Positions 206 through 11,432 of a stretch of DNA of 11,432 nt are shown here, one piece after another (position 1 is the stretch's first letter; each line of letters opens with the position of its first letter). The notes beneath the pieces were generated by a model, which did no database searches, had not been told where the DNA came from, and saw nothing but the letters and a program-made list of their open reading frames with translations. Source of the stretch: Patescibacteria group bacterium (GTDB taxonomy: Bacteria > Patescibacteriota > Patescibacteriia > UBA10025 > JAHIVO01); NCBI GenBank assembly GCA_018816445.1, contig JAHIVO010000028.1:1-11432 (forward strand). The letters are read 5' to 3'. The position numbers were made by a program, and so were the translations under genes.

Positions 206-236
206 AAGGCCGGAATTGAAAAGTCCCGTTTTTTGT

Positions 237-2576
237 TTACTTAATTTCTGGTAGAAATTTTATAGGCCATTGTTTTGGGTCATGGATGTACTTCAGGTCA
301 TGGATGCCGATTTTTCCTATATATAATTTTTTTAATTCATCTATCCCCTTGTCTTTAAGTAGTCTTTGGATCATCTGGTAGCCGATAAAATAAACAATAT
401 CCTTAGCAAAAGCGCCGGGTTCATTAGTATTTTCCAGACCCCTTTTAGTGCGTACACAAATACGCCAAGCTTTAGCTTTGTCTATTTTAAAGTTACTTTG
501 CAGGAAGTGGAATAGTTCTGTGAAAGACAAGTTATTGCCATGGTAAATAGCCGCGATGTTCAGGGCAGGTGAAAAATATTTTTCTCCTAAAGGTATACCC
601 AGACTGTTTTGGTTGTAAATTGCTAAACCCTCTTCAGTCGTCAGATAATTAGCTGTTCCCTGCTCAAATAAGCTGTATTTTTGCAAGCGGCCATTTTCCA
701 GGCGGAAAATATGTGTTTCAATTTCATGAGCAATCAGCGCTTTTAGACGGTTTTCAGAAAAGTTGGCTTTCTTATTAACGAAGATTGTATTTTTTTTATT
801 AATTTGCATGCCTGAAGTAGCAGTTTCCAGAATTTTTATTTTCCATCTGGTTAATTTTTTTTGGGAAAGGTACGCAGATAGGCGTTTGATTACCTCCTCA
901 GTGTTTAATTTCTTGCTAGTATCTTTTTCTAGCTTCTCATTTTTCATGAATGACAGAGCCTGCTCATATAATTCATTAGATACACTGCCAAAAAGTTTAA
1001 TTGAGTACTCCGCCATTTCCGGACGCCCAATATTGTCAATTAGTGATAGTTTATCGTCAATTTCTTTAATTTTTTCTAAGTACAACGGCATCAGCGGGTG
1101 GTCAATATTCTTTGGAATTTTTTTAATCTCGTTGCGCAGGTGGTTTATATTAAGATCATGTTTCTTGTAAATGAATTGCGGTGAGTGGACTGGTTTTTTT
1201 ATGAATTTTTTAAATTCATCATTCAGGTTTTGGGGCTTAATTCTAGCGATCAGGTGTATGCACTCATTTATTGCCAGAATTTTCTTATCAATATTTAGTA
1301 AAATTTTTTCTTCTTTTGATTCAATGGGCGCAGAACTAGTTGGTTCTGGCTTAATCTTAGAGGTATCAATTAAAAAGTCAGTCAGGTATTTGCCAGAGAG
1401 AATGGCTTTATATGGCTTGTCTTTAAAATTATCCGTAGTAAAGGGAATTTTAAGTTTTTTTTCTTTTAACACGATGGATAGCAAGCGTCCGGCTGGGGAT
1501 AATTTAATCCCCTGGTCAATGATATTGTTTTCGCTGTGGGGATCAATTTTTACGTGGATATTGGCACCATTGATTGCATTAATTATATTAATTGATTCAA
1601 AAAGGCCAATAATTGGCTTGGCAGTTTTTACATTTAATACTTTTTCTTCTTTTACTACTCGCGTAAATAAAGTTTTTCCGATTTTTACGCCTTCTTTTGT
1701 TGACATTACTTTAAGATCGGCAATCTTTTCCAATCTTTTACGCAGTAAGGTTTGGTTAGATATCTGAATGGCCAAACCTGCTCGGGCGTTGAGTTCTAGT
1801 ATTTTAATGCCATTTTTTGCTAAAGTTATGTCTACTGCCAGGTAGCCGATTTGTGATAAGTATTGGGTGCGGCTGGCCGTGGCTAAGATTTCATCCCACT
1901 GCGGGATGGCAATACTCCCGACTGGGTCACCAGTAGGCAGTCTTTTTACCAGCTTATTATGCCTTACGCCGAATGTTGTTTTGCCGGTACCAATGTCTAT
2001 GCCCAGACCAATGGCTCCTAGATGAAGATTGGCTTTACCATGAGATTCGGCAGTGGGCAGGCGTAGCATAGCAATGACCGGCACGTACTTAAAGACAATA
2101 ATCCTGATGTCAGGCAGTCCGCCTGCTTCCATAAATTTTTTGAAATAATCATGGGGTTCCAGCATCTCTTCAAAAATAACCGTGTCGCTAAGGCCGGATA
2201 TGGCGTATTTTCCATCCAGGATGCCGATACAATGCTCATATAAATCAGACCATGAAATATTTTTATTATTAACATCTGTGTATGTATCGCCGTGCCATCT
2301 TTTAATAGCCCATATTCCCTCCCCACCATAACCTTTATTCGGTTTAATCACAAAACTTGGAGGTAGGTTGCTTCTATTGAAATTCCTTAATTCAGGCAGT
2401 GAATTAATTGAAGCATAGAGCCTGGCTACCCCAACATCGCGCGCTTGCAAAAAATGTTTGGTGTGGATTTTACTGTCGGCCAATTCTTTCTTGCCTCGTG
2501 TATTATATTTTGTTATATACAGTAAATTTCTTGCGTTGATGCCGAGAATATCTGATGCTTTGCCAAAAAATGACAT
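237..2576 (-). CDS. Fusion protein: N-terminal alpha-L-glutamate-ligase-like ATP-grasp (RimK-related, sugar-transfer-associated ATP-grasp type) plus C-terminal DUF1704/MATCAP-like metallopeptidase domain (HExxxH ... EEGLA)
   Basis: 779-aa ORF. N-terminal motifs LGINARNLLYI, FVIKPNKGYGGEGIW and DIRIIVFKYVPVIAMLRLPTAESHGKANLHLGAIGLGIDIGTGKT match the rimK-related alpha-L-glutamate ligase-like family as I recall it. C-terminus has HEIETH (HExxxH) followed ~27 aa later by TEEGLAIY, matching the QEGLA motif of DUF1704. The middle is a K/I/N/E-rich linker. Stop is TAA. Confidence 0.7.
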   Translation of the reverse strand: MSFFGKASDILGINARNLLYITKYNTRGKKELADSKIHTKHFLQARDVGVARLYASINSLPELRNFNRSNLPPSFVIKPNKGYGGEGIWAIKRWHGDTYTDVNNKNISWSDLYEHCIGILDGKYAISGLSDTVIFEEMLEPHDYFKKFMEAGGLPDIRIIVFKYVPVIAMLRLPTAESHGKANLHLGAIGLGIDIGTGKTTFGVRHNKLVKRLPTGDPVGSIAIPQWDEILATASRTQYLSQIGYLAVDITLAKNGIKILELNARAGLAIQISNQTLLRKRLEKIADLKVMSTKEGVKIGKTLFTRVVKEEKVLNVKTAKPIIGLFESINIINAINGANIHVKIDPHSENNIIDQGIKLSPAGRLLSIVLKEKKLKIPFTTDNFKDKPYKAILSGKYLTDFLIDTSKIKPEPTSSAPIESKEEKILLNIDKKILAINECIHLIARIKPQNLNDEFKKFIKKPVHSPQFIYKKHDLNINHLRNEIKKIPKNIDHPLMPLYLEKIKEIDDKLSLIDNIGRPEMAEYSIKLFGSVSNELYEQALSFMKNEKLEKDTSKKLNTEEVIKRLSAYLSQKKLTRWKIKILETATSGMQINKKNTIFVNKKANFSENRLKALIAHEIETHIFRLENGRLQKYSLFEQGTANYLTTEEGLAIYNQNSLGIPLGEKYFSPALNIAAIYHGNNLSFTELFHFLQSNFKIDKAKAWRICVRTKRGLENTNEPGAFAKDIVYFIGYQMIQRLLKDKGIDELKKLYIGKIGIHDLKYIHDPKQWPIKFLPEIK

Positions 2577-2681
2577 AATAAGTAATTCAAAAGTAAAAAA
2601 TCAAAATGCAAAAATGCATGTTAAGTATTTCAAATTTTATTTGTCATTTTTATTTTTTATCTTTAAAATTTTCATTTTGTT

Positions 2682-4235
2682 CTATTCTTCAATATTTTTT
2701 TCTTTGAATAATGTTCTGAAACGGACATATTCCATAAATCTAAGCCCTGTGAATTTACCTAGGATTATTAATCCAAGTAATGGTGCCAGAACGAGTTCAG
2801 GCCATGACATTATCAGGTTTGTAAAAGCAGTCCAAACCACTAGATAATAAGCAGCTAGGGCCACTAGGATAGTTTTAAATACGCCGAACAGAGCTTCCCT
2901 TAAGCCTTCTTCAGACTGAGCTGACAGGAATTTTTCAGAAATTGTTGACATAACTAGCATAGGAAAAATTGCCAGGGAAATGGCTAGAGAAACCTGATAG
3001 TATGACAAGAACCAGATAAGTCCTAAAAATGACAAACCAATGCTAGCCAATATCAGGCCGGATTTAGGCATGTACAACAGCCTAAACCTGTTGAGAATGG
3101 ATCTTAAAATATAACTGACAGCTACAACTATTATTATTGTACCTAGGCCAAATAAAATTCCCAGGATGAGCAAGGAAAGAGCAATAACCGAAGGAGTATA
3201 AATTCCAAAAGCTGAAATACCGACTATCTGCCGGAAAAAGGCGATTACAAAAACAATAAATGGGTAAGCTAATATCAAATAAATAGTGTTAGTTGGTATG
3301 CCCTTGGTAATAAAATTTGTTATGGCATGGGAAAGAATAAAGAGCGGCGATTTTTCACTGCGTGAATCAATTACACGATATTCAATAGCTCTATTTGAGA
3401 GGTTGGTGGTTAGCAGATTATAATCATCTATTTCAAATATTGGATTAAGTGCTTCTTTACGGGTGAGCAGGATAAAAGCAGGCTGCATCACTTCAAACGA
3501 TTGAAAGGTCAGCTTTTCCGTAATACCGATATTTTGGTCAGTGATTTTTACTAATAGTTTTTTCTTTAAGTTAATTTTATTATCATCTTCCAGGTTTTGC
3601 CAGTAACGCGTGAATGACTGCAAGCCAAGGGAGGTTTGGGTGTAAAAGATTAAGCCGTCTGATTCCTTAATAAATTCTATTTCTTCACCAATGATTGAAA
3701 CCATTTTTTCTTCAGTTAAAAACCCAGTCTCTTCTCCAACGGCGGATATGATTTTTAAAAAGACGCCATTATGCGCTGCCTGGTCTACAATCAGCTCTAA
3801 TCCATCCGTTGTGTCCTTATCAGTAATTATTAATATTTTTTTGTTATAAACAAATATTGTTTTTTCAATATTGGCCTTGAATTCACCCTGCTGGATGGTT
3901 AAGGTGATTTCATGTATGCCGGTTGATTTATACTCATGCACCACTTCTTTCCCAAACTGAACAATATTATCATCTGTGAAATCCCAGCGGTATGATGGGT
4001 TAAAATCTGTTGGTAAAAGTTCTGATTCGGAAGCGTCAAATAAAGCTTTTTTATTAACCATAATAAAGTCTTCTGAAGTTATAACAGGAGATAGCTGATT
4101 TACCTCAATCCCTTCGTCGCTATCTGTTTCCAATATTGGGGCATCCTGAGCTAAGGCCATAGGACTGAAAAAAAATAGTGATATCAGCCCTATGAAGATT
4201 GTGGTCAGTAATTTTTTCATATAATTATTATACAC
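2682..4235 (-). CDS. Signal-peptide protein with extracytoplasmic PKD-like domain and C-terminal 7-TM bundle (resembles the 7TM partner proteins of RimK-like ATP-grasp systems; 7TM-transglutaminase-associated type)
   Basis: 517 aa. N-terminal signal peptide MKKLLTTIFIGLISLFFFSPMALAQ. PKD-like motif YRWDFTDDNIVQFGKEVVHEYKSTGIHEITLTI. About 7 hydrophobic helices in the last ~220 aa. Start is 2 nt after the upstream ATP-grasp stop (4238), suggesting translational coupling. Confidence 0.65.
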   Translation of the reverse strand: MYNNYMKKLLTTIFIGLISLFFFSPMALAQDAPILETDSDEGIEVNQLSPVITSEDFIMVNKKALFDASESELLPTDFNPSYRWDFTDDNIVQFGKEVVHEYKSTGIHEITLTIQQGEFKANIEKTIFVYNKKILIITDKDTTDGLELIVDQAAHNGVFLKIISAVGEETGFLTEEKMVSIIGEEIEFIKESDGLIFYTQTSLGLQSFTRYWQNLEDDNKINLKKKLLVKITDQNIGITEKLTFQSFEVMQPAFILLTRKEALNPIFEIDDYNLLTTNLSNRAIEYRVIDSRSEKSPLFILSHAITNFITKGIPTNTIYLILAYPFIVFVIAFFRQIVGISAFGIYTPSVIALSLLILGILFGLGTIIIVVAVSYILRSILNRFRLLYMPKSGLILASIGLSFLGLIWFLSYYQVSLAISLAIFPMLVMSTISEKFLSAQSEEGLREALFGVFKTILVALAAYYLVVWTAFTNLIMSWPELVLAPLLGLIILGKFTGLRFMEYVRFRTLFKEKNIEE

Positions 4236-4237
4236 GT

Positions 4238-5191
4238 TTATTTAATACATTGCATGAGCGTTTTAAGCAGTTCTTTATGCCAGATATGATAGTACATTTT
4301 CCATTGTGGATATGGAAAGCCTGCCCGTGGGTTTAATTCGAAGACATAAGGTCGGCCATTTTCAAAGCCAAAGTCCATGGCATACATGCGATTGCCCATT
4401 CTTTTGATTTTTTTATCTATTAGAAAAGCAATTTTTATTGCTTTTTTTGGCACAGCACTTTTTTTAATTTCTAGCATTTTTCCTCCCTGAGCAACATTGG
4501 CTAATAGTGAGCCTTGCTTGGGAATACGTATGTATGTTTGAACGATTCTGCCGTTCATAAGTAATATTCTCATGTCATGGCGGGTTTTACATATGCCCGG
4601 CACTCCGCTAGAGGTGTCTAAAAAATCCTGTAATATTCCATTAAATGATTTTAATTTATTTTTTATCTTTTTTTTATCAGCAATGATAATACCCTTGCCT
4701 TCGGAGCCGCGTAAGGGCTTAAAAACAACTTGTTTGGTTTTAATTTTTTTTATTTGCCGGTTAAAATCAGATTTATTCTTAATTCTATAAGTAGGCTTCA
4801 TGTATTTTTTCAGGAGTTTATAGGTGTGATATTTATTGTCCATTATGAACAGGAGATTCCATTTGTTTAATACGCTCCAGTCTTTTCCGCCATTACAATG
4901 TAAGGGAGCCTTATTAAATACGACTTTGGCATAAATTTTTTCTTTCAAGCGGAGAAATTTTCCTTTTTTAAATTCAAAACCATCCGAAAAAATGCCATTG
5001 CCCAAATGCTTTTTGGTACCGCGAACATAAAATACGTTAAATTTTGACTCAGCAAGTCTCAGGAACTCCATGATTGATTGGCGATAATTGGGGTTATCAA
5101 GCGGATAATCAGACAAGGTGCCAGACTTAGTGAGATAAACCAAATTTGGTTTGTTATTTTGATAACGCTGTTTATTCGTTACTGCTGCCAT
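4238..5191 (-). CDS. RimK-like ATP-grasp family ligase
   Basis: 317 aa. Motifs VVFKPLRGSEGKGIIIA, RHDMRILLMNGRIVQTYIRIPKQGSLLANVAQGGK and YAMDFGFENGRPYVFELNPRAGF are typical of the RimK/ATP-grasp core. First gene of a tightly packed minus-strand three-gene cluster. Confidence 0.7.
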   Translation of the reverse strand: MAAVTNKQRYQNNKPNLVYLTKSGTLSDYPLDNPNYRQSIMEFLRLAESKFNVFYVRGTKKHLGNGIFSDGFEFKKGKFLRLKEKIYAKVVFNKAPLHCNGGKDWSVLNKWNLLFIMDNKYHTYKLLKKYMKPTYRIKNKSDFNRQIKKIKTKQVVFKPLRGSEGKGIIIADKKKIKNKLKSFNGILQDFLDTSSGVPGICKTRHDMRILLMNGRIVQTYIRIPKQGSLLANVAQGGKMLEIKKSAVPKKAIKIAFLIDKKIKRMGNRMYAMDFGFENGRPYVFELNPRAGFPYPQWKMYYHIWHKELLKTLMQCIK

Positions 5192-5297
5192 AAGAAATAA
5201 TTAAATACCATAATCCAGACTCAATTTAAATTATTGTGTCCTTTTTATCTTTGTTTTTATTAGACTGGGCAAATTGGCGTTTTATTTTTTTTAAAAG

Positions 5298-5381
5298 TGC
5301 CGCGGGAGAGAATCGAACTCTCAAGGTGTTGCCACCACTGGATTTTAAGTCCAGCGCGTATACCAGTTCCGCCACCGCGGC
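5298..5381 (-). tRNA. tRNA-Leu(TAA), class II (long variable arm), CCA not encoded
   Basis: Minus-strand fold: acceptor GCCGCGG/CCGCGGC, 3-bp D-stem with long D-loop, anticodon stem CTGGA/TCCAG with loop CTTAAAA (anticodon UAA), variable-arm stem GGTG/CACC, T-arm GAGAG-TTCGATT-CTCTC, discriminator A. Confidence 0.85.
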
Positions 5382-5636
5382 TCATTTGTCAATAAGAGTA
5401 TTTTTTAACATTGCCTTTATGGATGCTTTACCTTTTGAGATTTTAAAGTATCGTTCTCTTTTTTCAGCATCATCTTTATTGTTAAATACTTCATAAAAAA
5501 TTAATTTTATAGGGAGTCTATTTTTCGTAAATGGACTTCTTCCTTTTTTATGTTCGTTTAATCTCCGAGTGAGATTATAAGTTAATCCACAGTATAATTG
5601 TTTGTTTGAAAGTAAAAGTAAATAAATGTAGTACAT
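5382..5636 (-). CDS. Small GIY-YIG nuclease family protein (COG2827/YhbQ-like, ~84 aa); ORF is open upstream to 5663
   Basis: MYYIYLLLSNKQLYCGLTYNLTRRLNEHKKG carries GIY (YIY), YIG (YCG), Arg and Glu (NEH) motifs. The TGA stop abuts tRNA-Leu position +1. About 28% GC. Confidence 0.75.
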   Translation of the reverse strand: MYYIYLLLLSNKQLYCGLTYNLTRRLNEHKKGRSPFTKNRLPIKLIFYEVFNNKDDAEKRERYFKISKGKASIKAMLKNTLIDK

Positions 5637-5654
5637 ATTTGTATGTATACCACC

Positions 5655-5705
5655 CTGCACCACTAAAGGGTGCAGGATAGCTGTGAACCCTTTAGTGGTT
5701 CACAG
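5655..5705 (-). repeat. Paired hairpins with mutually complementary loops (ctgcacc-actaaag-ggtgcag and ctgtgaacc-ctttagt-ggttcacag) in the GIY-YIG 5' leader
   Basis: Stems of 7 bp and 9 bp. The loops actaaag and ctttagt are reverse complements, so an alternative 11-bp long-range pairing (ccactaaaggg/ccctttagtgg) is possible. Confidence 0.6.
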
Positions 5706-5723
5706 CAGTTCCGCCACCGCGGC
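5706..5723 (-). repeat. 18-nt direct repeat identical to the first 18 nt of tRNA-Leu (5364-5381); partial tRNA 5' fragment
   Basis: cagttccgccaccgcggc occurs at 5364-5381 and 5706-5723. Both copies are immediately preceded on the minus strand by a stop codon, TAG of the SpoU gene and TGA of the GIY-YIG gene respectively. Confidence 0.8.
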
Positions 5724-6188
5724 CTACTTGTTTACTATTTCAAATATGGTTATGCCTGAGGCTATGGCTACATTTAATGACTCCTTTTTGCCATACATTG
5801 GTATTTCAATAATTTCATGACATTCTTTCAGTAAGTTACTAGGCAGGCCTTTTACCTCGCTGCCGAGAAGCAGGGCTAATGGATATTTGGGTCTGAATTT
5901 AGTGTATGATATGCTTTTTTTTGACTGTTCAAGAGCGACAATATTATATCCTGCTGTTTTTAATTTTTTCAATGCGCGTTTGGTGTGCCGCCATGATTCA
6001 AAGGGGATAGATTTTTCCGCACCCAATGCTACTTTATCAATTTTAGGATGGGGCGGTGCCGGTGTAATGCCGCCAAGAAATATTTTTGTTATTCCAGCGG
6101 CATCGGCTGTTCGGAAGATAGCACCAACGTTAAAACAACTTCTAATATTATATAAAATCAGCACAAATGGTTTGGTATGCTTTATCAT
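5724..6188 (-). CDS. SPOUT (SpoU/TrmH) family RNA 2'-O-methyltransferase, TrmL-like by size (154 aa)
   Basis: LILYNIRSCFNVGAIFRTADAAG (SpoU motif 1), LLLGSEVKGLP and ESLNVAIASGITIFE (motifs 2 and 3). Stop is TAG at 5724-5726. Confidence 0.75.
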   Translation of the reverse strand: MIKHTKPFVLILYNIRSCFNVGAIFRTADAAGITKIFLGGITPAPPHPKIDKVALGAEKSIPFESWRHTKRALKKLKTAGYNIVALEQSKKSISYTKFRPKYPLALLLGSEVKGLPSNLLKECHEIIEIPMYGKKESLNVAIASGITIFEIVNK

Positions 6189-6206
6189 GCAAAGTACGTT
6201 TTATTA

Positions 6207-6219
6207 TGGTCAATGACCA
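6207..6219. promoter_or_regulatory. Perfect 13-nt palindrome TGGTCAaTGACCA just upstream of the SpoU-family gene start; possible operator
   Basis: Seen directly; lies 19 nt upstream of the minus-strand ATG at 6188. Confidence 0.25.
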
Positions 6220-6225
6220 CGAGCA

Positions 6226-6358
6226 AATTCAGCAGAGGTGGATGAGTTGAGTGGAGCGAGAGAGGGGACTCGCCCGTCCTCCGCAGAAGCAGGTTTCTGC
6301 TTCGGAGGGTGGAAACCCCCGACCTTTTCCCCCGCCTGCCAAAGCGGAGTAGAATAAT
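6226..6358. repeat. GC-rich hairpin element, second copy of the family seen at 1-205
   Basis: cctccgcagaagcagg...ctgcttcggagg stem-loop. Terminal ccaaagcggagtagaataata resembles ccaagctgcggagtataatagcgg at 166-190. Confidence 0.35.
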
Positions 6359-6404
6359 ACTCTTATATATCTAGGTTCTAATTGTCGGGGTATTAAGTTT
6401 TAAA

Positions 6405-6480
6405 TGGAGCGGCAGACCGGACTCGAACCGGCGACCTTTTCCTTGGCAAGGAAACGTTCTACCAACTGAACTACTGCCGC
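6405..6480 (-). tRNA. tRNA-Gly(GCC), CCA encoded
   Basis: Acceptor GCGGCAG/CTGCCGC, D-arm GTTC-AGTTGGTA-GAAC, anticodon stem TTTCC/GGAAA with loop TTGCCAA, T-arm GCCGG-TTCGAGT-CCGGT, discriminator T plus CCA. Confidence 0.9.
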
Positions 6481-6504
6481 GTATTTGCTGCTGCGGCGGG
6501 CAGG

Positions 6505-6538
6505 TTGGCAAGGAAACGTTCTAGCCAACTGAACTACT
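6505..6538 (-). pseudogene. Partial tRNA-Gly copy (D-arm to anticodon loop, ~33/34 nt with one 1-nt insertion) lying 24 nt 5' of the intact tRNA-Gly
   Basis: ttggcaaggaaacgttctagccaactgaactact versus tRNA-Gly ttggcaaggaaacgttctaccaactgaactact (6444-6475). The flanks do not restore an acceptor stem or anticodon stem. Confidence 0.7.
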
Positions 6539-6624
6539 CTCGCGCGTCCAAATGGTGCTATCGGTTTCATTTCTCCGCATTCGCGGAGCAACTACACCTT
6601 TCGCACGCATTTCTCCTTTTCCTC

Positions 6625-6746
6625 GCTGCGTATAATTACGCAGCTCGGATTGTTATTTTTAAATTGTTAAGAACCGTGATGAGAATCTTTTGCGATTCCT
6701 TCTTTACTCGCCGCGTCGTATAGTATATACGCAGCTCGTATTTTTT
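6625..6746 (+). repeat. Two copies of a hairpin plus T-run unit sharing tacgcagctcg (6625-6660 and 6713-6746); terminator-like on the plus strand
   Basis: gctgcgta-taat-tacgcagc followed by tcggattgttattttt. cgtata-gta-tatacg(cagctcg) followed by tattttttattt. Confidence 0.35.
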
Positions 6747-6763
6747 ATTTATACTAGCTCAAG

Positions 6764-6837
<74 letters not shown>

Positions 6838-6870
6838 TAATATTGTTATATTGTTTAAAAATTGTTAAGG
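6838..6870 (-). promoter_or_regulatory. AT-rich promoter-like motif cttaacaattt(t/a)taaa..., repeated at 6649-6672; candidate tRNA promoter (-35-like TTAACA)
   Basis: attgttatWtttWaaattgttaag occurs twice, each 5' of a tRNA or pseudo-tRNA on the minus strand. Hexamer assignment is uncertain. Confidence 0.3.
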
Positions 6871-6960
6871 TTTTGTCTCCCTGCGGGAGATGTCCCGAGG
6901 GGACACAGACCCCTGCCTGGATCCTGCCCCGCTGAATAGCGGGGACTTGGCTACGTGGCC
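6869..6960 (-). pseudogene. Degenerate copy of the tRNA-Cys 5' half (positions ~1-43) interrupted by two GC-rich hairpin insertions, one in the D-loop and one in the anticodon loop
   Basis: cttggctacgtggcc (6946-6960) equals the tRNA-Cys 5' end (6823-6837). cagacccctgcct (6906-6918) and ggttttg (6869-6875) also match tRNA-Cys. The insertions are ~27 nt (ggatcctgccccgctgaatagcggggac) and 30 nt (tctccctgcgggagatgtcccgaggggaca). Confidence 0.65.
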
Positions 6961-7058
6961 AGGCCCTTAAAAAAACAAACATATTTTATTAACTATGTAA
7001 GAATATAATAACAGAAAAATCCATTTATTACAAGTGTTTTCTGGTGGTATTTTTTTCT

Positions 7059-7085
7059 AAAAAGGCCCGTGTTAGGGCCTTTTTA
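7059..7085. terminator. Bidirectional rho-independent terminator (aggccc-gtgtta-gggcct flanked by A-run and T-run), 3' of the 3D-domain gene
   Basis: aaaaaggcccgtgttagggcctttttag: 6-bp GC stem flanked by A5 and T5. Confidence 0.6.
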
Positions 7086-7087
7086 GT

Positions 7088-7591
7088 TTAAAGAATTTCA
7101 ATTGTTGTATATCTAACTCCCCATTGCTTGGCTGCGTCGCGAGTCTCCATCCATATATCAGCCCGCTGCCAATAGCGCTGGTGCATGCGATCTTCAACAA
7201 TAAATATTTTATTACCATATTTTTCTGGGAATCTTACTTTTGTGCCAATAGGCAGAAAGTTGGCGGCGATAATTCCATCACGTACACGGCTGCCAGAAGC
7301 GGTGATAAGGGGGTCGCCTGATGTTTGATCAGGGGTAGACGAATAAGCAGTGACTGAAATTTTCAAAGACCGTTTAGCTTCTGGCTGTGGCCTGTCCGGT
7401 ATTTCCGGTAGGTGCAGTACGGGTGGTTCTTTGGCAATTGAAAAATTTATTTGTGTAGATTCAAAAATGCTTGGCTCTATTTTTATTTCACTGGCTGTAG
7501 CCTGGTATGGGAACGAGAATTCCCCGATTAGGATTATCAGTAGCACGATAATCAGGCGTTTTGCTTCAATTGAGTTAATACTTGTAAACAT
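7088..7591 (-). CDS. 3D-domain (MltA-like double-psi beta-barrel) protein with N-terminal signal/anchor; YuiC/YocH-like cell-wall hydrolase-type protein
   Basis: 167 aa. Hydrophobic N-terminus LIIVLLIILIG. The C-terminus ISVTAYSSTPDQTSGDPLITASGSRVRDGIIAANFLPIGTKVRFPEKYGNKIFIVEDRMHQRYWQRADIWMETRDAAKQWGVRYTTIEIL fits the 3D-domain consensus (TAY..G..T..G......G.IA.....P.GT...I....G...V.D.G..I.G..ID.......A..WG.R.V.V.IL). Confidence 0.85.
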   Translation of the reverse strand: MFTSINSIEAKRLIIVLLIILIGEFSFPYQATASEIKIEPSIFESTQINFSIAKEPPVLHLPEIPDRPQPEAKRSLKISVTAYSSTPDQTSGDPLITASGSRVRDGIIAANFLPIGTKVRFPEKYGNKIFIVEDRMHQRYWQRADIWMETRDAAKQWGVRYTTIEIL

Positions 7592-7672
7592 ATTAGGTTT
7601 TTTATGAATTTAATTAGAGAATTTAGCAATAATTAGCTTTCCTAGGCTAAAATTAGCTAATAACTAGGTATC

Positions 7673-7694
7673 AAAAAACACCCTATCAAGGGTG
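7673..7694 (-). terminator. Hairpin caccc-tgatag-gggtg followed by a U6 run, located ~10 nt downstream of the predicted TSS of the 3D-domain gene; attenuator-like leader element
   Basis: Minus strand reads aatctcacccttgatagggtgttttttgatacc. Confidence 0.4.
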
Positions 7695-7702
7695 AGATTT
7701 GA

Positions 7703-7738
7703 ATCGCCTATCTTAGCAAAATAGTAAAATATGTCAAC
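7703..7738 (-). promoter_or_regulatory. Sigma70-type promoter: -35 TTGACA (7733-7738), 16-nt spacer, extended -10 TGcTAAGAT (7710-7718)
   Basis: Minus strand reads ggggTTGACAtattttactatttTGcTAAGATagg, upstream of the 3D-domain gene (ATG at 7591). Confidence 0.45.
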
Positions 7739-7902
7739 CCCGTATAATAAACATACTATCCACAGGGTATTTTCCAGTATTTATTAGATTATTTAATTTT
7801 TAAAATGGCGACTGAATTTGCGGGGTCAAGGGGATATAGTATGGATGTATTTTTAAGCTTTAATTTGACTTTTTTGGTAGACTATAGAAAAAGCATAGTC
7901 TT

Positions 7903-7911
7903 TGCTATAAT
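7903..7911 (+). promoter_or_regulatory. Extended -10 element TGcTATAAT about 26 nt upstream of the first HPS-like gene start
   Basis: tttGCTATAATtagtatataagtattcatttaatttATG. No convincing -35. Confidence 0.35.
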
Positions 7912-7936
7912 TAGTATATAAGTATTCATTTAATTT

Positions 7937-8605
7937 ATGCGCTTACCAGCTAAAAAAAAATATTTGCAGATTGCCTTTAACCGGACTTGGAGTGAAGTAC
8001 GGGAGATGGTTAATTATTTGCCAGCTTCAGACAGAATACTGGTGGAAGCAGGCACTCCTTTTATAAAAAAATACGGCCAAGAGGGAATTAGCGCACTTGA
8101 TCAATGGTGGTCGGTTAGATTGGGACGGCCTGGTTACGTTGTGGCTGATTTAAAATGCATGGACCGGGGATCTACTGAAGTGGAAGAAGCCGCAGCTGCC
8201 GGAGCTTCAGCTGTTACCTGTTTGGGTTTGGCACCTATTGATACAATCAATGAGTTTATCAAAAAGTGCCAGAATTCACAGGTTGATTCTATGATAAATA
8301 TGCTGAATGTTGATTTTCCATTTGAGGTACTGCAAAAATTAAAAAGTATGCCGGATATTGTCGTGCTGCACCGCGGAGCTGACGAGGGAGTGATTAATAG
8401 AGAGAAGATGCTTAGGCTTGACCAGATTCGTCGGATTAAAGGGGCCTATAATATTTTTATTTCCGTAGCCGGTGGTGAAACATCCAGAGAAGTTATCAGT
8501 TCGGCTTTTAATGATGCTGACATTGTTGTTGTCTGGAGGACTTTTTATGAACAGCCAAAACAGACAACCCAGCTGGCAGAAGATTTTTTAAGGAATGTAA
8601 AATAA
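7937..8605 (+). CDS. OMP-decarboxylase-suprafamily enzyme of the 3-hexulose-6-phosphate synthase / 3-keto-L-gulonate-6-P decarboxylase (HPS/KGPDC) family, paralog 1
   Basis: 222 aa. KYLQIAFN (first beta-strand), VEAGTP, ADLKCMD (DxKxxD), VVLHRGADEG (conserved His), ISVAGGE and ADIVVVW follow the HPS/KGPDC motif pattern. Asn replaces the usual Asp of the LQVALD motif. Confidence 0.8.
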   Translation: MRLPAKKKYLQIAFNRTWSEVREMVNYLPASDRILVEAGTPFIKKYGQEGISALDQWWSVRLGRPGYVVADLKCMDRGSTEVEEAAAAGASAVTCLGLAPIDTINEFIKKCQNSQVDSMINMLNVDFPFEVLQKLKSMPDIVVLHRGADEGVINREKMLRLDQIRRIKGAYNIFISVAGGETSREVISSAFNDADIVVVWRTFYEQPKQTTQLAEDFLRNVK

Positions 8606-8607
8606 CC

Positions 8608-9537
8608 ATGAATCCTTCAGCCGATTCCTTTATTGAAGTTATCCGATCCTTAGTTTGGTTTGTGGTAATATTTTTAATAATATACAGTTTAAAAAAGAAT
8701 AAAAATAAAGCGACCTCGAAGGGCAAGCCCTCATCAAGCAGCCAAACTTTAATTGATCTTATTACACGTTTAAGCCAGGAGGTAGCTAAAAAGAAAGCTA
8801 TGGTGCTACCAGGCAGCCGGCCAAGTGTTGGGTCTCCCCGTTCATTGTTTGCCACCCCGGCATTATTAGCTCCACCGCCGCCTAAATTATCCCAAAAAAA
8901 CAAGTATTTGCAGGTAGCCCTTAATAGCACTTTACACGAAGCGCGGAGTATAATTTATCAGCTGCCGCAATCACACAGGATTATACTGGAGGCCGGCACC
9001 CCGCTTATGAAAATTTACGGTAATGAAGCCATTCGGGCGATGAAATCCGCCGCCTGGCCAGGCGCTTATATCGTAGCGGATATTAAAACTACTGATTTGG
9101 CAGTTCGCGAAGTTGCCGAGGTTGCCCAGGCCGGCGCTAATGCTGCAACATGCCTGGGTGTAGCCCCAGTAGAAACAATAAATGAATTTATTGCCGCTTG
9201 CCGAAAATATGGGCTTGATTCAATGGTTGATATGATGAACGTGGATAATGCGCTGATAGTGCTAAAGAAACTAAAAAAAGTTCCGGATGTAGTCATGCTG
9301 CATCGTGGTGTTGATGAAACCGAATTTTCAAAAGAAAGACAAATTCCTTTTTATCAGATTAAGCAGATTAAAGGGGCATATGATATTATGGTCTCTATTG
9401 CTGGCGGAGATCAGATTCGGGAAGTTCAGCGAGCAGTGTTTAATGACGCTGATATTGTGGTTGCGTGGAAAGATTTTTATCGCCTTAGTTCAGACACAGC
9501 TACTCTGGCTAATCAGTTTTTACATGAAGTAAAATAA
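8608..9537 (+). CDS. HPS/KGPDC-family paralog 2 with ~90-aa N-terminal extension (one predicted TM helix plus Ser/Pro-rich linker)
   Basis: 309 aa. The C-terminal 215 aa are ~45% identical to paralog 1 (KYLQVALN, LEAGTP, ADIKTTD, VMLHRGVDET, VSIAGGD, ADIVVAW). ATG lies 2 nt after the paralog-1 stop. N-terminus LVWFVVIFLIIYSL, then SSSSQ...PPPP. Confidence 0.75.
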   Translation: MNPSADSFIEVIRSLVWFVVIFLIIYSLKKNKNKATSKGKPSSSSQTLIDLITRLSQEVAKKKAMVLPGSRPSVGSPRSLFATPALLAPPPPKLSQKNKYLQVALNSTLHEARSIIYQLPQSHRIILEAGTPLMKIYGNEAIRAMKSAAWPGAYIVADIKTTDLAVREVAEVAQAGANAATCLGVAPVETINEFIAACRKYGLDSMVDMMNVDNALIVLKKLKKVPDVVMLHRGVDETEFSKERQIPFYQIKQIKGAYDIMVSIAGGDQIREVQRAVFNDADIVVAWKDFYRLSSDTATLANQFLHEVK

Positions 9538-9548
9538 TAAGGAATAAA

Positions 9549-9586
9549 AAATAACCCCGAAATTTTTTACCGGAGTTATTTTATTA
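9549..9586. terminator. Bidirectional rho-independent terminator between convergent HPS-like paralog 2 and the SPFH gene
   Basis: aataaccccg-aaattttttac-cggagttatt is a 10-bp stem with one G-U pair, flanked by T-runs on both strands. Confidence 0.6.
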
Positions 9587-9591
9587 TATAT

Positions 9592-10353
9592 TTATTTTTG
9601 AGAATCTTTACCTAAGGCCTTAATCCCTTCCATGACTTCCACCGGCAGGGCAAAGATGACAGTTTTGGACGGGTCTGGATTAATTGCTTCAATAGTCTTC
9701 AGGGTGCGCAGGGACAAACCGCCTTTGGCCATGGAAAGATTCTGGGCAGCCGCTCTGAGGTTTTCCGAAGCGGATAGTTCGCCCTGGGCGCGGATGATAA
9801 CAGCCCGCCGTTCTCTTTCTGACTCAGCCTGTTTAGCCATAGCGCGCTTCATATCCGCTGGCAGTTCAATATCCTGGATTTTAATAGCTGTTACGTTAAT
9901 ACCCCAGGGGTTAGTGGCTTCATCAACGATTTTTTGTATTTCATCAGCAATTTTATCGCGTTCTGCCAGTGAAGTATCCAGCTCAACACTACCAATAACA
10001 TCGCGCAGGGCAGCCTGGGCATATTGGGCTACGGCGGTGGAATAATTTTGGATTTTGAGGATAGCACTCTCGGCTTTCTCAACCTGGAAATATACAACTG
10101 CGTTGATACCGACTGGCACGTTATCCTTGGTAATAACTTCCTGCTGGGGGATATCCACAGTGGTGATACGCAGGTCAACTTTGATCATGCGCTGGATAAT
10201 GGGGAAAATCCAGGTTAAACCCGGAGTCCGGGTGCCGGTGTACTTGCCCAGAGTTAAGATAACACCGCGTTCGTACTGGTTAATAATGCGCAAGCCAGTT
10301 AGCATGAAGAATCCGAAAAAGATGATGATGAAGAAAAAAACTCCTAAAACCAT
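9592..10353 (-). CDS. SPFH/band-7 (stomatin/prohibitin-like) membrane protein
   Basis: 253 aa. N-terminal TM FFFIIIFFGFFMLTGL, then QYERGVILTLGKYTGTRTPGLTWIFP...KDNVPVGINAVVYFQV and a C-terminal coiled-coil Ala/Glu/Arg-rich segment, as typical of SPFH. Confidence 0.9.
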   Translation of the reverse strand: MVLGVFFFIIIFFGFFMLTGLRIINQYERGVILTLGKYTGTRTPGLTWIFPIIQRMIKVDLRITTVDIPQQEVITKDNVPVGINAVVYFQVEKAESAILKIQNYSTAVAQYAQAALRDVIGSVELDTSLAERDKIADEIQKIVDEATNPWGINVTAIKIQDIELPADMKRAMAKQAESERERRAVIIRAQGELSASENLRAAAQNLSMAKGGLSLRTLKTIEAINPDPSKTVIFALPVEVMEGIKALGKDSQK

Positions 10354-10386
10354 ATGTTTTTTATTAATGAAAAATTAACTATAGTA

Positions 10387-10395
10387 ATTATATCA
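10387..10395 (-). promoter_or_regulatory. Extended -10 TGaTATAAT upstream of the SPFH gene
   Basis: Minus strand reads ctaTGATATAATtactatagttaatttttcattaataaaaaacATATG. Weak -35. Confidence 0.35.
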
Positions 10396-10442
10396 TAGAT
10401 AATTTTAATATAAAATCCCTTAATATGTAGAATATTAATAAA

Positions 10443-10470
10443 AAACCGGATAGTATATACTACCCGGTTT
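10443..10470 (-). terminator. Rho-independent terminator (aaaccgg-14-nt palindromic loop-ccggttt plus U-run) immediately after the TAA at 10478-10480
   Basis: Minus strand reads TAActgagccaaaccgggtagtatatactatccggttttttatt. Confidence 0.6.
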
Positions 10471-10477
10471 GGCTCAG

Positions 10478-10663
10478 TTAGAGTTTGATTTTCAGTTCGA
10501 GCCAGCCTTGTTTTCCTTGTACACCTGTTAGATATTCTCCAATATATCCGTTTAGTTCAAGGTTGGGGGTCAATTTGTATAACCAGCCCAGGCCCAGGGA
10601 TTGCTGGTATGAACCTTGCCAGCGCCATTCAGTTTGCAGGCGCAGCTGAAGTGATTCTATTAA
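10478..10663 (-). other. 61-codon in-frame continuation of the upstream ORF beyond its TAG (10664-10666), ending at TAA 10478-10480 directly before a terminator; readthrough, recoding or pseudogene remnant
   Basis: Same frame as 10664-11077. Translation is LIESLQLRLQTEWRWQGSYQQSLGLGWLYKLTPNLELNGYIGEYLTGVQGKQGWLELKIKL with composition similar to the upstream part. Confidence 0.45.
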
Positions 10664-11077
10664 CTAATAGCTCGTGTAATACCTGCCCCAGGACCACCAG
10701 TCCAGGTCAGGATCAATCAGGTCTTTCAGTGCCAGCGTGCGGTTGAAGAAAGTCCAGCGGCCTATTTGCCAGGTTAAAAATAAATCCGTACCCCAGTCTT
10801 TTACTGGCCACTCGGTGTCCCTGATTTCCAGCCGGTTGAACAAAAAGCCATTGATTTGCAGCTTGGCGGTAACATAGCGCGGACCCAGGCCAGCCATTAA
10901 CCAGGGTTTGTCCCCGGTCTGGTACAATAAATACCAGTTCCAGTTTTCAGCCGTATTTATGTAGTAGAGGGTGGCTTGTTTACCGATGTTCTGTTTGACT
11001 TTCAGGGTGTGGGTGGCGGCTGTGGCGTTGGTAATGAGTAGTACCAGGCAGATAAGCAGACATAAAACTGTTTTCAT
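10664..11077 (-). CDS. Signal-peptide, Trp/Tyr-rich beta-type secreted or outer-membrane-like protein of unknown function; 137 aa up to the in-frame TAG
   Basis: MKTVLCLLICLVLLITNATAA signal peptide, preceded by AAGGAG at 11085-11090 (7-nt spacing). The ORF is open upstream to 11146, but the SD supports ATG 11077. About 48% GC. Confidence 0.55.
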   Translation of the reverse strand: MKTVLCLLICLVLLITNATAATHTLKVKQNIGKQATLYYINTAENWNWYLLYQTGDKPWLMAGLGPRYVTAKLQINGFLFNRLEIRDTEWPVKDWGTDLFLTWQIGRWTFFNRTLALKDLIDPDLDWWSWGRYYTSY

Positions 11078-11094
11078 TAAAATTCTCCTTGGGT

Positions 11095-11432
11095 TTATTT
11101 GAAGAACTGAATGCTTTGGATCGGCATGAAATCGGTAAAAGCCCAAGCTTTCCAGCTACCGTCACCTGAGACATCGGTACTGTGAATAAATTCAAGCATA
11201 ATACCTTCCCGCATACCCGGTGAGTAAAGTCGTAGCATCCACCCCCTGTTTATTCCTCCATCCTTTGAGCAGCTGTGCATGTCATAGGCGGCGATCACGA
11301 AGCCGTAGATGTTTCTGTGAAGATTTTCGGGCTTTATTGCGCCGTCATCAACACCACTAATGGCAACGAACGTCACCTTCATGCCCAAAAGTTTCTGCGG
11401 TTTTGATGGCAAGCCAATACCTGGATTGGCGG
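11095..11432 (-). CDS. Hypothetical protein, 5'-truncated by the window end (frame open to 11432); no family recognised
   Basis: ...LPSKPQKLLGMKVTFVAISGVDDGAIKPENLHRNIYGFVIAAYDMHSCSKDGGINRGWMLRLYSPGMREGIMLEFIHSTDVSGDGSWKAWAFTDFMPIQSIQFFK. TAA at 11095-11097 is followed 4 nt later by the SD of the next gene. The M of the ORF track is a TTG codon and the frame stays open to the window edge. Confidence 0.45.
   Translation of the reverse strand, partial: ANPGIGLPSKPQKLLGMKVTFVAISGVDDGAIKPENLHRNIYGFVIAAYDMHSCSKDGGINRGWMLRLYSPGMREGIMLEFIHSTDVSGDGSWKAWAFTDFMPIQSIQFFK

Follow-up and report, generated by a model that had tools for sequence, protein, structure and literature searches.

Can an amino-acid ligase and a carboxypeptidase that share one polypeptide chain act as writer and eraser of the same tail, and if so, on which protein? 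This question is raised by a compact cluster of three genes, here called A, B and C, in an 11,432-nucleotide stretch of contig JAHIVO010000028.1 from the metagenome-assembled genome of an uncultured Patescibacteria group bacterium (assembly GCA_018816445.1; the whole stretch is referred to below as the window). An earlier note, made from the sequence alone, had proposed that two ATP-grasp ligases, a seven-transmembrane (7TM) protein and a MATCAP-type peptidase form one reversible peptide-tagging module. Here we find that the conserved unit is the pair B and C, that C carries a third domain between its ligase and its MATCAP peptidase, and that the 7TM protein B ends in a nearly invariant glutamate, which leads us to a narrower proposal for what is being tagged.

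The gene pair B-C and the accessory ligase A

The three open reading frames (ORFs) are co-directional and all read from the minus strand, at the positions where the earlier note had placed them. Gene A (4238..5191) encodes an accessory ATP-grasp ligase of the RimK/GshB type (317 aa), gene B (2682..4235) a 7TM partner with a secreted ectodomain (517 aa from a GTG start) and gene C (237..2576) a three-domain enzyme of 779 aa that is predicted to be cytoplasmic. The near-abutting arrangement described earlier is borne out by the ORF coordinates: the stop codon of A occupies 4238-4240, B starts at 4235 (GTG) or 4220 (ATG), the latter being the start used by NCBI five codons after the GTG (512 aa), and a gap of 105 nt (2577-2681) separates B from C. 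Directly 3' of the stop codon of C, a consensus scan gave a weak pattern match to a terminator-like hairpin with a T-run (211..228, minus strand), which is probably the end of the transcription unit.

Profile searches with Pfam and NCBIfam confirmed all the domain calls that had been made by reading the sequence, namely a RimK-like ATP-grasp in A, PKD and 7TM domains in B, and an ATP-grasp joined to a DUF1704/MATCAP domain in C. More specifically, C begins with an RloC-type ATP-grasp ligase (residues 7-292; 1701..2558, minus strand; PF14397 1.6e-54, TIGR02291 2.1e-71), which scores 185.5 bits with PF14397 (ATPgrasp_ST; cut-off 31.4) and 240.5 bits with TIGR02291, under the equivalog cut-off of 314. 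It ends with a gluzincin carboxypeptidase domain of the MATCAP/QEGLA family (residues 430-766; 279..1289, minus strand; PF08014 5e-42, TIGR02421 1e-47); PF08014 covers residues 462-766 at 144.6 bits (gathering cut-off 27), and the QEGLA profile TIGR02421 gives 163 bits, under its equivalog cut-off of 338.65. Residues K78, E261 and N263 of the ligase, as well as H617, E618, H622, E648 and E649 of the MATCAP domain, are invariant among 15 homologues. When C is aligned with human MATCAP (PDB 7z5g, E 6.6e-12), its HEIETH motif (711-728, minus strand) stands opposite HEIGTH and its TEEGLA motif (621-638, minus strand) is identical. The catalytic motifs of both domains are intact. Full-length homologues of C, at 45-70% identity, are found in Kerfeldbacteria, Magasanikbacteria, Peregrinibacteria, Gracilibacteria, Uhrbacteria and Buchananbacteria.

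Gene B opens with a predicted signal peptide, MKKLLTTIFIGLISLFFFSPMALA, followed by QD (4149..4220, minus strand), which was recognized by reading the sequence for hydropathy and an AxA motif. A PKD domain (residues 54-118; 3882..4076, minus strand; PKD_4 2.6e-8, PKD 4.6e-6) and an alpha/beta ectodomain private to the family (residues ~132-310; 3306..3842, minus strand) precede an RloB-type 7TM domain (residues 316-509; 2709..3290, minus strand; PF14402 4.1e-26, together with hydropathy). The NCBIfam RloB profile NF052267 matches this last domain at profile positions 312-508 only (1e-15). We considered whether the ectodomain could be a transglutaminase and ruled this out: a single-sequence Pfam scan at E up to 10 found none, PKD alone being matched in B, and the RloB profile covers the 7TM end only. 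An AlphaFold 2 model of the ectodomain, compared with the PDB, matched only generic flavodoxin/Rossmann-like folds. An exhaustive HMMER search of 1.84 billion representative proteins found only 82 that carry the ectodomain; in the full-length members it occupies the same position as in B, and the others are mostly shorter sequences. Hydropathy and the positive-inside rule would place the N-terminus of B outside and its K/R-rich C-terminal tail inside. Three polar motifs (F.RQ..G..AFG.YTP, FP.L.M….EKF….Q.E.G and GLR..EY.RF) are kept in the 7TM domain of all variants of the system; they could form a conduit, a catalytic site or a docking surface for the ligase.

To define the conserved unit, we surveyed one genome per GTDB species. 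Relatives of C were found in 245 species, and the counts given for the module rest on the best 80 of these, all of which are Patescibacteria fusions. In 65 of the 70 species loci with enough sequence, the gene directly upstream of C is B, usually at most 60 nt away; among the five loci where B does not adjoin, one has another 7-TM neighbour and at least one has B elsewhere on the contig (P0218, L056). B and C are an obligate gene pair. Clustering of all flanking ORFs in the 80 loci revealed no further widely conserved neighbour, and the idea of one was rejected: the next most frequent clusters, none of them seen at more than 13 of the 80 loci, look from their translations like lineage-specific housekeeping genes (ArgRS, dUTPase, TilS, EPSP synthase and SufC). 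As an aside, many of the metagenome-assembled contigs that bear the module (L002, L004, L014, L018 and L020 among others) have 'uncultured Gammaproteobacteria bacterium' or 'Candidatus Peribacteria' as their record title, labels that are probably placeholders or wrong.

Gene A, by contrast with the 65 of 70 for B, adjoins the B-C pair in 15 of 66 species and lies on the opposite strand in 7 of those 15, where identity falls to ~28%. Because of this difference, we consider the module to be B plus C, with A an accessory gene outside the conserved unit. The earlier view of two ligases, a 7TM protein and a peptidase as one module does not hold, and of the conserved triad neighbourhood that it predicted, the B-C pair stands while A drops out. 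The A family comprises 24 proteins only, all from the Candidate Phyla Radiation, with K158, D273, E285 and N287 invariant. Its profile scores (Pfam RimK 2.9e-11, 43.8 bits against a cut-off of 21; GSH-S_ATP 2.9e-10; NCBIfam rimK_fam TIGR00768 5e-14, 52.3 bits, under the cut-off of 143.4) and its best PDB match (7qys, E 0.007) make it a member of the RimK-like fold and not a RimK orthologue. Matches to the cofactor glutamate ligases MptN (8.8e-13) and CofF (3e-5) are weak and far under the cut-offs, and the GshB-like partner of QEGLA in Proteobacteria is distant (23% identity, E 6e-8). We also considered A as a paralogue of the C ligase and rejected this, as BLASTP shows no detectable similarity between the two. 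The protein collection contains exact matches to B and C but none to A, for which the best hit there is 56% identical; A is nonetheless full-length relative to its homologues and was perhaps uncalled, or called differently, in the source record.

The middle domain of C and the terminus of B

Between the ligase and the MATCAP domain of C lies a conserved stretch of 120 residues (…IGL.E…AKIDPH…GK.L.DFLID). The earlier note, right about the two enzymes on either side, had overlooked that this stretch contains a domain, although it is key to placing the system. We assign it as an RloA/RimB-like retropepsin-fold domain (residues ~322-411; 1344..1613, minus strand) of degenerate type, with DPH instead of DTG at the catalytic triplet (1536-1544, minus strand). 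Conventional searches gave little: a single-sequence Pfam scan at E up to 10 found no match to the linker, and linker profiles compared with PDB sequences returned nothing significant, the SNF7 matches being spurious. Once DTG-bearing members were added, the profile found the RloA-type structure 9g58 in the correct region, at E 0.3, and when 32 linkers were scanned with Pfam one by one, two gave weak matches to the retropepsin clan (5.5e-4). An AlphaFold model built from 76 sequences is confident, with predicted local distance difference test (pLDDT) values >90 in the core, and by this model the middle domain has a retropepsin fold.

A paralogue provides the bridge. The 464-aa protein L084 aligns with residues 3-379 of C at 43% identity (E 7e-80), with KIDTG in L084 opposite KIDPH in C. 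The region equivalent to the C linker matches PF05618 at 39.9 bits (cut-off 27) and RloA1 and RloA3 at ~1e-11. L084 has both marks of a retropepsin, that is membership in the profile and a catalytic D-T/S-G, and the domain in C has neither. On the strength of the linker model and of the L084 alignment and profile matches, we read C as an RloC-like ligase, an RloA/RimB-like domain and a MATCAP peptidase. In the C family (80 species), the triplet is DPH in 39, D-L-x in ~20, altered by replacement of the Asp in 8 and still DTG in 2, and the retropepsin domain is catalytically degenerate.

L084 also serves as the reference for a sister system without MATCAP, for which we surveyed 80 metagenome loci (L086-L165). 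The order at such loci (L084 4030-11564) is a bare 7TM_transglut gene, a ligase-retropepsin fusion without MATCAP, extra ATP-grasp ligases and a class A penicillin-binding protein (PBP). The 7TM_transglut protein of L084 has 221 aa and matches the C-terminal part of RloB (8.5e-26). The extra ligases, one to several, are of the RimK type, the A-like type and the cyanophycin-synthetase type, one of them resembling the ATP-grasp domain of cyanophycin synthetase at 4.3e-49. Across the survey, the fusions measure 462-489 aa and carry DTG in 80 of 80; the 7TM gene is directly upstream in all 66 testable loci, 0-4 extra ligase genes follow downstream, and a class A PBP (transglycosylase plus transpeptidase) comes after the ligase cluster in 32 of 35.

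The aspartic triplet is therefore kept in 80 of 80 fusions without MATCAP versus 2 of 80 with it, in two groups that are clades and not independent samples, and from this difference we infer that MATCAP took over the peptidase role while the retropepsin decayed to a structural or regulatory part. Three loci (L138, L139 and L148) have a stand-alone MATCAP gene that clusters with, and runs in the direction of, the 7TM gene, the DTG fusion and the extra ligases, in what looks like an unfused intermediate.

The second distinctive feature of the MATCAP-fused type is the end of B. The C-terminal tail RFMEYVRFRTLFKEKNIEE (2685..2741, minus strand), predicted to be cytoplasmic and a candidate acceptor or substrate, finishes in …KEKNIEE, the terminal Glu-Glu occupying 2685-2690 on the minus strand. 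A terminal Glu is present in 113 of 115 B-family proteins, in 100 of them as Glu-Glu and in some as EEE or EEEE; counted by species locus, the figure is 73 of 74. The residues just ahead of the terminal Glu are variable, and the A and C protein families show no bias towards a Glu terminus like that of B. Among 7TM partners in MATCAP-less systems, the terminal Glu occurs in 0 of 78, with tails such as …IIKKM. We asked whether the Glu-Glu could be a by-product of a Shine-Dalgarno sequence (a GAR-GAR gene end) for C. This explanation was rejected, because the pattern is seen at every B-C spacing: 21/21 at 13-30 nt, 8/8 at 31-100 nt and 5/6 above 100 nt, a class to which the window's own pair belongs with its 105-nt gap and -EE terminus. 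Ribosomal protein S6, which RimK lengthens, has Glu-Glu at its C-terminus, and the product of MATCAP on alpha-tubulin is -EE; the terminus of B resembles both the acceptor of the one and the product of the other. B's is the only -EE terminus identified; rpsF is absent from the window.

Candidate roles of the module

The statement in the earlier note that no function had been shown experimentally is outdated, as genetics of the homologous rloABC genes of Pseudomonas aeruginosa were published in 2025 (Lormand et al., mBio 2025, PMC12239564). Of the three proteins of this operon, RloA is secreted, retropepsin-like and able to cleave poly-Glu in vitro, RloB is an inactive transglutaminase joined to a 7TM domain, and RloC is a cytoplasmic ATP-grasp. 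Loss of the three RloA paralogues results in hypo-osmotic lethality and in defects of cell shape, biofilm and antibiotic resistance, and deletion of rloB or rloC suppresses these defects (PMC12239564). Because of this suppression, the homologues of B and C act together upstream of the peptidase. In the related RimK/RimB pair, RimB cleaves poly-Glu tails and also stimulates the synthesis of poly-alpha-Glu by RimK; the two also occur in nature as a RimB-RimK hybrid (Little et al., JBC 2025, PMC11957791).

Outside Patescibacteria, too, MATCAP is linked to ATP-grasp ligases, once more with a bearing on osmotic physiology. In Photobacterium at low salinity, adjoining QEGLA and GshB-like genes are induced 27-fold and 38-fold, respectively, and RimK is induced 52-fold along with them (PMC10308900). 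At the proteobacterial QEGLA loci (L081 5062-7053; L083 2446-8159), the MATCAP gene of Sinorhizobium pSMED01 overlaps, and is translationally coupled to, a gene for an ATP-grasp of the 'glutathione synthetase' subfamily (NF009110, 502 bits), with an N-formylglutamate amidohydrolase (FGase) gene nearby, and the Vibrio QEGLA/MATCAP protein is fused to an FGase-like domain; on the proteobacterial megaplasmids, QEGLA/MATCAP does not adjoin rlo genes. A group II intron reverse transcriptase (3243-4535, minus strand) sits between the FGase and MATCAP genes of pSMED01. To our knowledge, bacterial MATCAP/QEGLA proteins have no known function. In the searchable literature, we found no description of a ligase-MATCAP fusion or of a 7TM protein with an -EE tail; the replacement of a decayed retropepsin by MATCAP within the ligase polypeptide, and the near-universal Glu-Glu on the 7TM partner, thus seem to be undescribed.

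The domain homologies are firm; the mechanism that we infer, to which we give a probability of about 0.4, is one in which the ligase of C lengthens a peptide on the cytoplasmic tail of B and the MATCAP domain of C shortens it. C would dock on B at the cytoplasmic face of the membrane, where its ligase, with ATP, would couple amino acids, most likely Glu as for RimK, to the carboxylate of a C-terminus. As acceptor we favour B's own -EE tail. MATCAP would then remove C-terminal residues and reset the tail to -EE, giving a cycle of writing and erasing or of length control. The dead retropepsin domain may have been kept as an activator of the ligase or a binder of acidic chains, as RimB is for RimK, and A, if present, may add one more residue or one of another kind. 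Tail state would tune the envelope role of the 7TM/ectodomain protein.

We favour this mechanism because of the homology of the parts, the adjacency of B and C in an order that Legionella rloABC shares, the suppression in Pseudomonas, the RimB/RimK precedent, the displacement of the retropepsin, the recurrent MATCAP-ligase links and the Glu terminus of B. The tagging idea of the earlier note is thereby supported in part. Its ligase-plus-eraser logic is backed by RimK/RimB (PMC11957791), by RloC/RloA (PMC12239564) and by the independent pairing of MATCAP with ATP-grasps in Proteobacteria, and its analogy with TTL/MATCAP is strengthened by the near-invariant Glu-Glu on the predicted cytoplasmic end of B, found in MATCAP-fused systems only. 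Alongside the domain calls, these points stand; the triad as a unit, the lack of any shown function and an AT-richness specific to the cluster do not.

Several observations weigh against tail extension on B. Where MATCAP is unfused, at three loci, the 7TM tails are basic and not acidic (…IIKPK, …IIKSK). The Glu-Glu could be a docking or product-mimic motif instead of a substrate. A single origin is possible for the MATCAP fusion, the PKD-type B and the -EE tail, in which case their co-variation would count as one event, although it is maintained to ~28-35% identity. The cytoplasmic placement of B's tail has hydropathy and the positive-inside rule as its whole basis. Finally, the location of the relevant Pseudomonas peptidase in the periplasm speaks for an exported product there (PMC12239564).

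That last point leads to the strongest competitor, a free acidic peptide or polymer as in classical Rlo, which we regard as possible but somewhat doubtful. C would make poly-alpha-glutamate-like chains that B exports or couples, MATCAP would trim, recycle or set the length of the chains, and -EE would be a dock or primer mimic. Since deletion of rloB or rloC relieves the toxicity caused by loss of the periplasmic RloA proteases, a product reaching the periplasm is implied; RloA cleaves poly-Glu, RimK stimulated by RimB yields free poly-alpha-Glu, and the charged 7TM motifs are common to all variants. However, the sole intact peptidase here is cytoplasmic and fused to the ligase, an arrangement that would be futile for export unless it serves editing, and the restriction of B's Glu-Glu to MATCAP-fused systems is left unexplained.

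A role in cell-wall chemistry is improbable. The ligases would build or modify a peptide linked to a peptidoglycan or lipid precursor, B would pass it across the membrane, and the peptidases would edit stem-like peptides. This draws on the sister system, where the PBP in 32 of 35 loci and the additional ligases (0-4, belonging to the RimK, GshB and cyanophycin-synthetase types) make a cell-wall or heteropeptide link possible, and on the cell-shape and beta-lactam phenotypes of Rlo mutants. But the PBP association is confined to one fairly narrow lineage (62-100% identity) near dnaA/dnaN and may be plain synteny; the MATCAP-fused type has no PBP or Mur gene as a conserved neighbour, and no Mur-ligase or transpeptidase fold is found in A, B or C.

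There is a still slimmer chance that the module tags another cytoplasmic protein or glutamylates a cofactor (F420, methanopterin or folate-like), with B acting as a regulator only. The weak MptN and CofF matches of A and two hexulose-6-phosphate-synthase (HPS)-like genes in the window fit a cofactor, yet just one of the 80 related loci has the HPS-like genes as neighbours, most species do without A, and neither the B-C coupling nor the -EE tail is explained. An anti-phage defence or toxin system, suggested by nothing but the novelty of the cluster and an adjoining small GIY-YIG gene (present in 1 of 80 loci), is effectively refuted by the stable, vertical-looking synteny of the module among housekeeping genes in many lineages and by a PADLOC scan of A, B, C and three neighbours that matched no defence family at E up to 0.001.

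Returning to extension and trimming of B's tail, the fusion, the links to neighbouring ATP-grasps and the apparent displacement of a poly-Glu endopeptidase together point to MATCAP as a trimmer of ligase-made acidic C-termini. More tentatively than the tail chemistry itself, we propose a self-contained write/erase code, in which one ligase-MATCAP enzyme lengthens and shortens, reversibly, the genetically encoded Glu-Glu terminus of the 7TM protein with which it is paired, and an envelope function is thereby controlled. If true, bacterial MATCAP would have its first assigned role, the tubulin tyrosination/glutamylation cycle would have a counterpart, perhaps a precursor, among prokaryotes, and there would be a hint at what RloB and RloC do in pathogens. 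How the eukaryotic tubulin-tail code originated is a question on which the bacterial pairing of ATP-grasp and MATCAP bears in any case. For the Rlo field, the module offers the -EE terminus of the 7TM protein as a candidate substrate, with all activities in two heterologously expressible genes. Patescibacteria genomes are very small and the module is found in many classes, so it likely matters for envelope biology.

Surroundings and known relatives

The 5' boundary of the cluster is a tRNA-Leu(UAA) gene (5297-5381, minus strand) 105 nt upstream of A; tRNA-Gly(GCC) (6405-6480) and tRNA-Cys(GCA) (6764-6837) genes follow on the same strand. An 86-aa ORF overlapping the tRNA-Leu gene (5236-5496, plus strand) is spurious. 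The GIY-YIG gene (5382-5663, minus strand; 93 aa, Pfam 1.1e-14), whose stop codon abuts the tRNA-Leu gene, may be a mobile or recently inserted element, as it is found in 1 of 80 related loci. The cluster had been described as the most AT-rich part of the window. This is true relative to 6189-11432 (36.2% versus 43.2% GC), but the adjoining stretch 5192-6188 equals it at 36.5%, the GIY-YIG gene falls to 27.7%, and within the cluster the ATP-grasp part of C reaches up to 42%.

The HPS-like genes are tandem paralogues of the OMPdecase family (7937-8605 and 8608-9537, plus strand). The second has ~95 extra N-terminal residues, part of them hydrophobic and part rich in Pro; an HPS-like protein anchored in the membrane, if it is such, would be unusual. 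Two ORFs with an N-terminal hydrophobic segment (7088-7591, 167 aa, and 10664-11146, 160 aa; both minus strand) matched nothing in Pfam, NCBIfam or PADLOC. The longer of the two, with 167 aa, was found again in 5 closely related loci, and its C-terminus, by eye, presumably resembles a 3D/DPBB-type domain.

Taken together, the sequence relationships make the module best read as a Patescibacteria variant of the Rlo (RloB/RloC/RloA) system. The two share an RloC-type ATP-grasp, an RloB-type 7TM gene immediately upstream of it, a retropepsin-fold module and the logic of ligase versus peptidase. They differ in that RloA is separate, secreted and active with DTG, whereas the retropepsin here is fused to the ligase, cytoplasmic and degenerate with DPH; RloB has an inactive transglutaminase where B has a PKD domain and a private alpha/beta ectodomain; the MATCAP zinc carboxypeptidase occurs in the module only; and the host, a member of the Patescibacteria, is without an outer-membrane-bounded periplasm. 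In Legionella adelaidensis (L166), which has the classical rloA-rloB-rloC order with overlapping rloB and rloC, RloB ends in …KARS, in contrast to the Glu-Glu of B. The sister system likewise has 7TM_transglut directly upstream of an ATPgrasp_ST-retropepsin fusion, and A-like accessory ligases, but it is without MATCAP and has an intact retropepsin, a 7TM protein with a basic C-terminus and without ectodomain, up to four extra ligases and a downstream PBP.

With RimK/RimB, the module shares an ATP-grasp ligase paired or fused with a retropepsin-like peptidase, and the S6 acceptor of RimK also has a Glu-Glu C-terminus; in that system the peptidase stimulates the ligase. Here, however, the ligase belongs to the RloC and not the RimK family, the order of ligase then retropepsin is the reverse of that in the RimBK hybrid, the retropepsin is predicted to be inactive, a 7TM partner and MATCAP are present, and a link to the ribosome is not evident. 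The proteobacterial QEGLA loci likewise couple a bacterial MATCAP genetically to an ATP-grasp, and the low-salinity induction in Photobacterium echoes the hypo-osmotic phenotype of Rlo; their ligase is of the NF009110 and not the RloC type, they have neither 7TM partner nor retropepsin, and an FGase-like domain is fused or adjacent. Finally, the tubulin cycle of TTL/TTLL versus MATCAP (KIAA0895L; PDB 7z5g, 7z6s) has in common with the module an ATP-grasp writer, a homologous MATCAP eraser and an acidic -EE tail. What sets the module apart is that its writer and eraser are one polypeptide, that its ligase lies outside the TTL family and that its candidate substrate is a 7TM protein.

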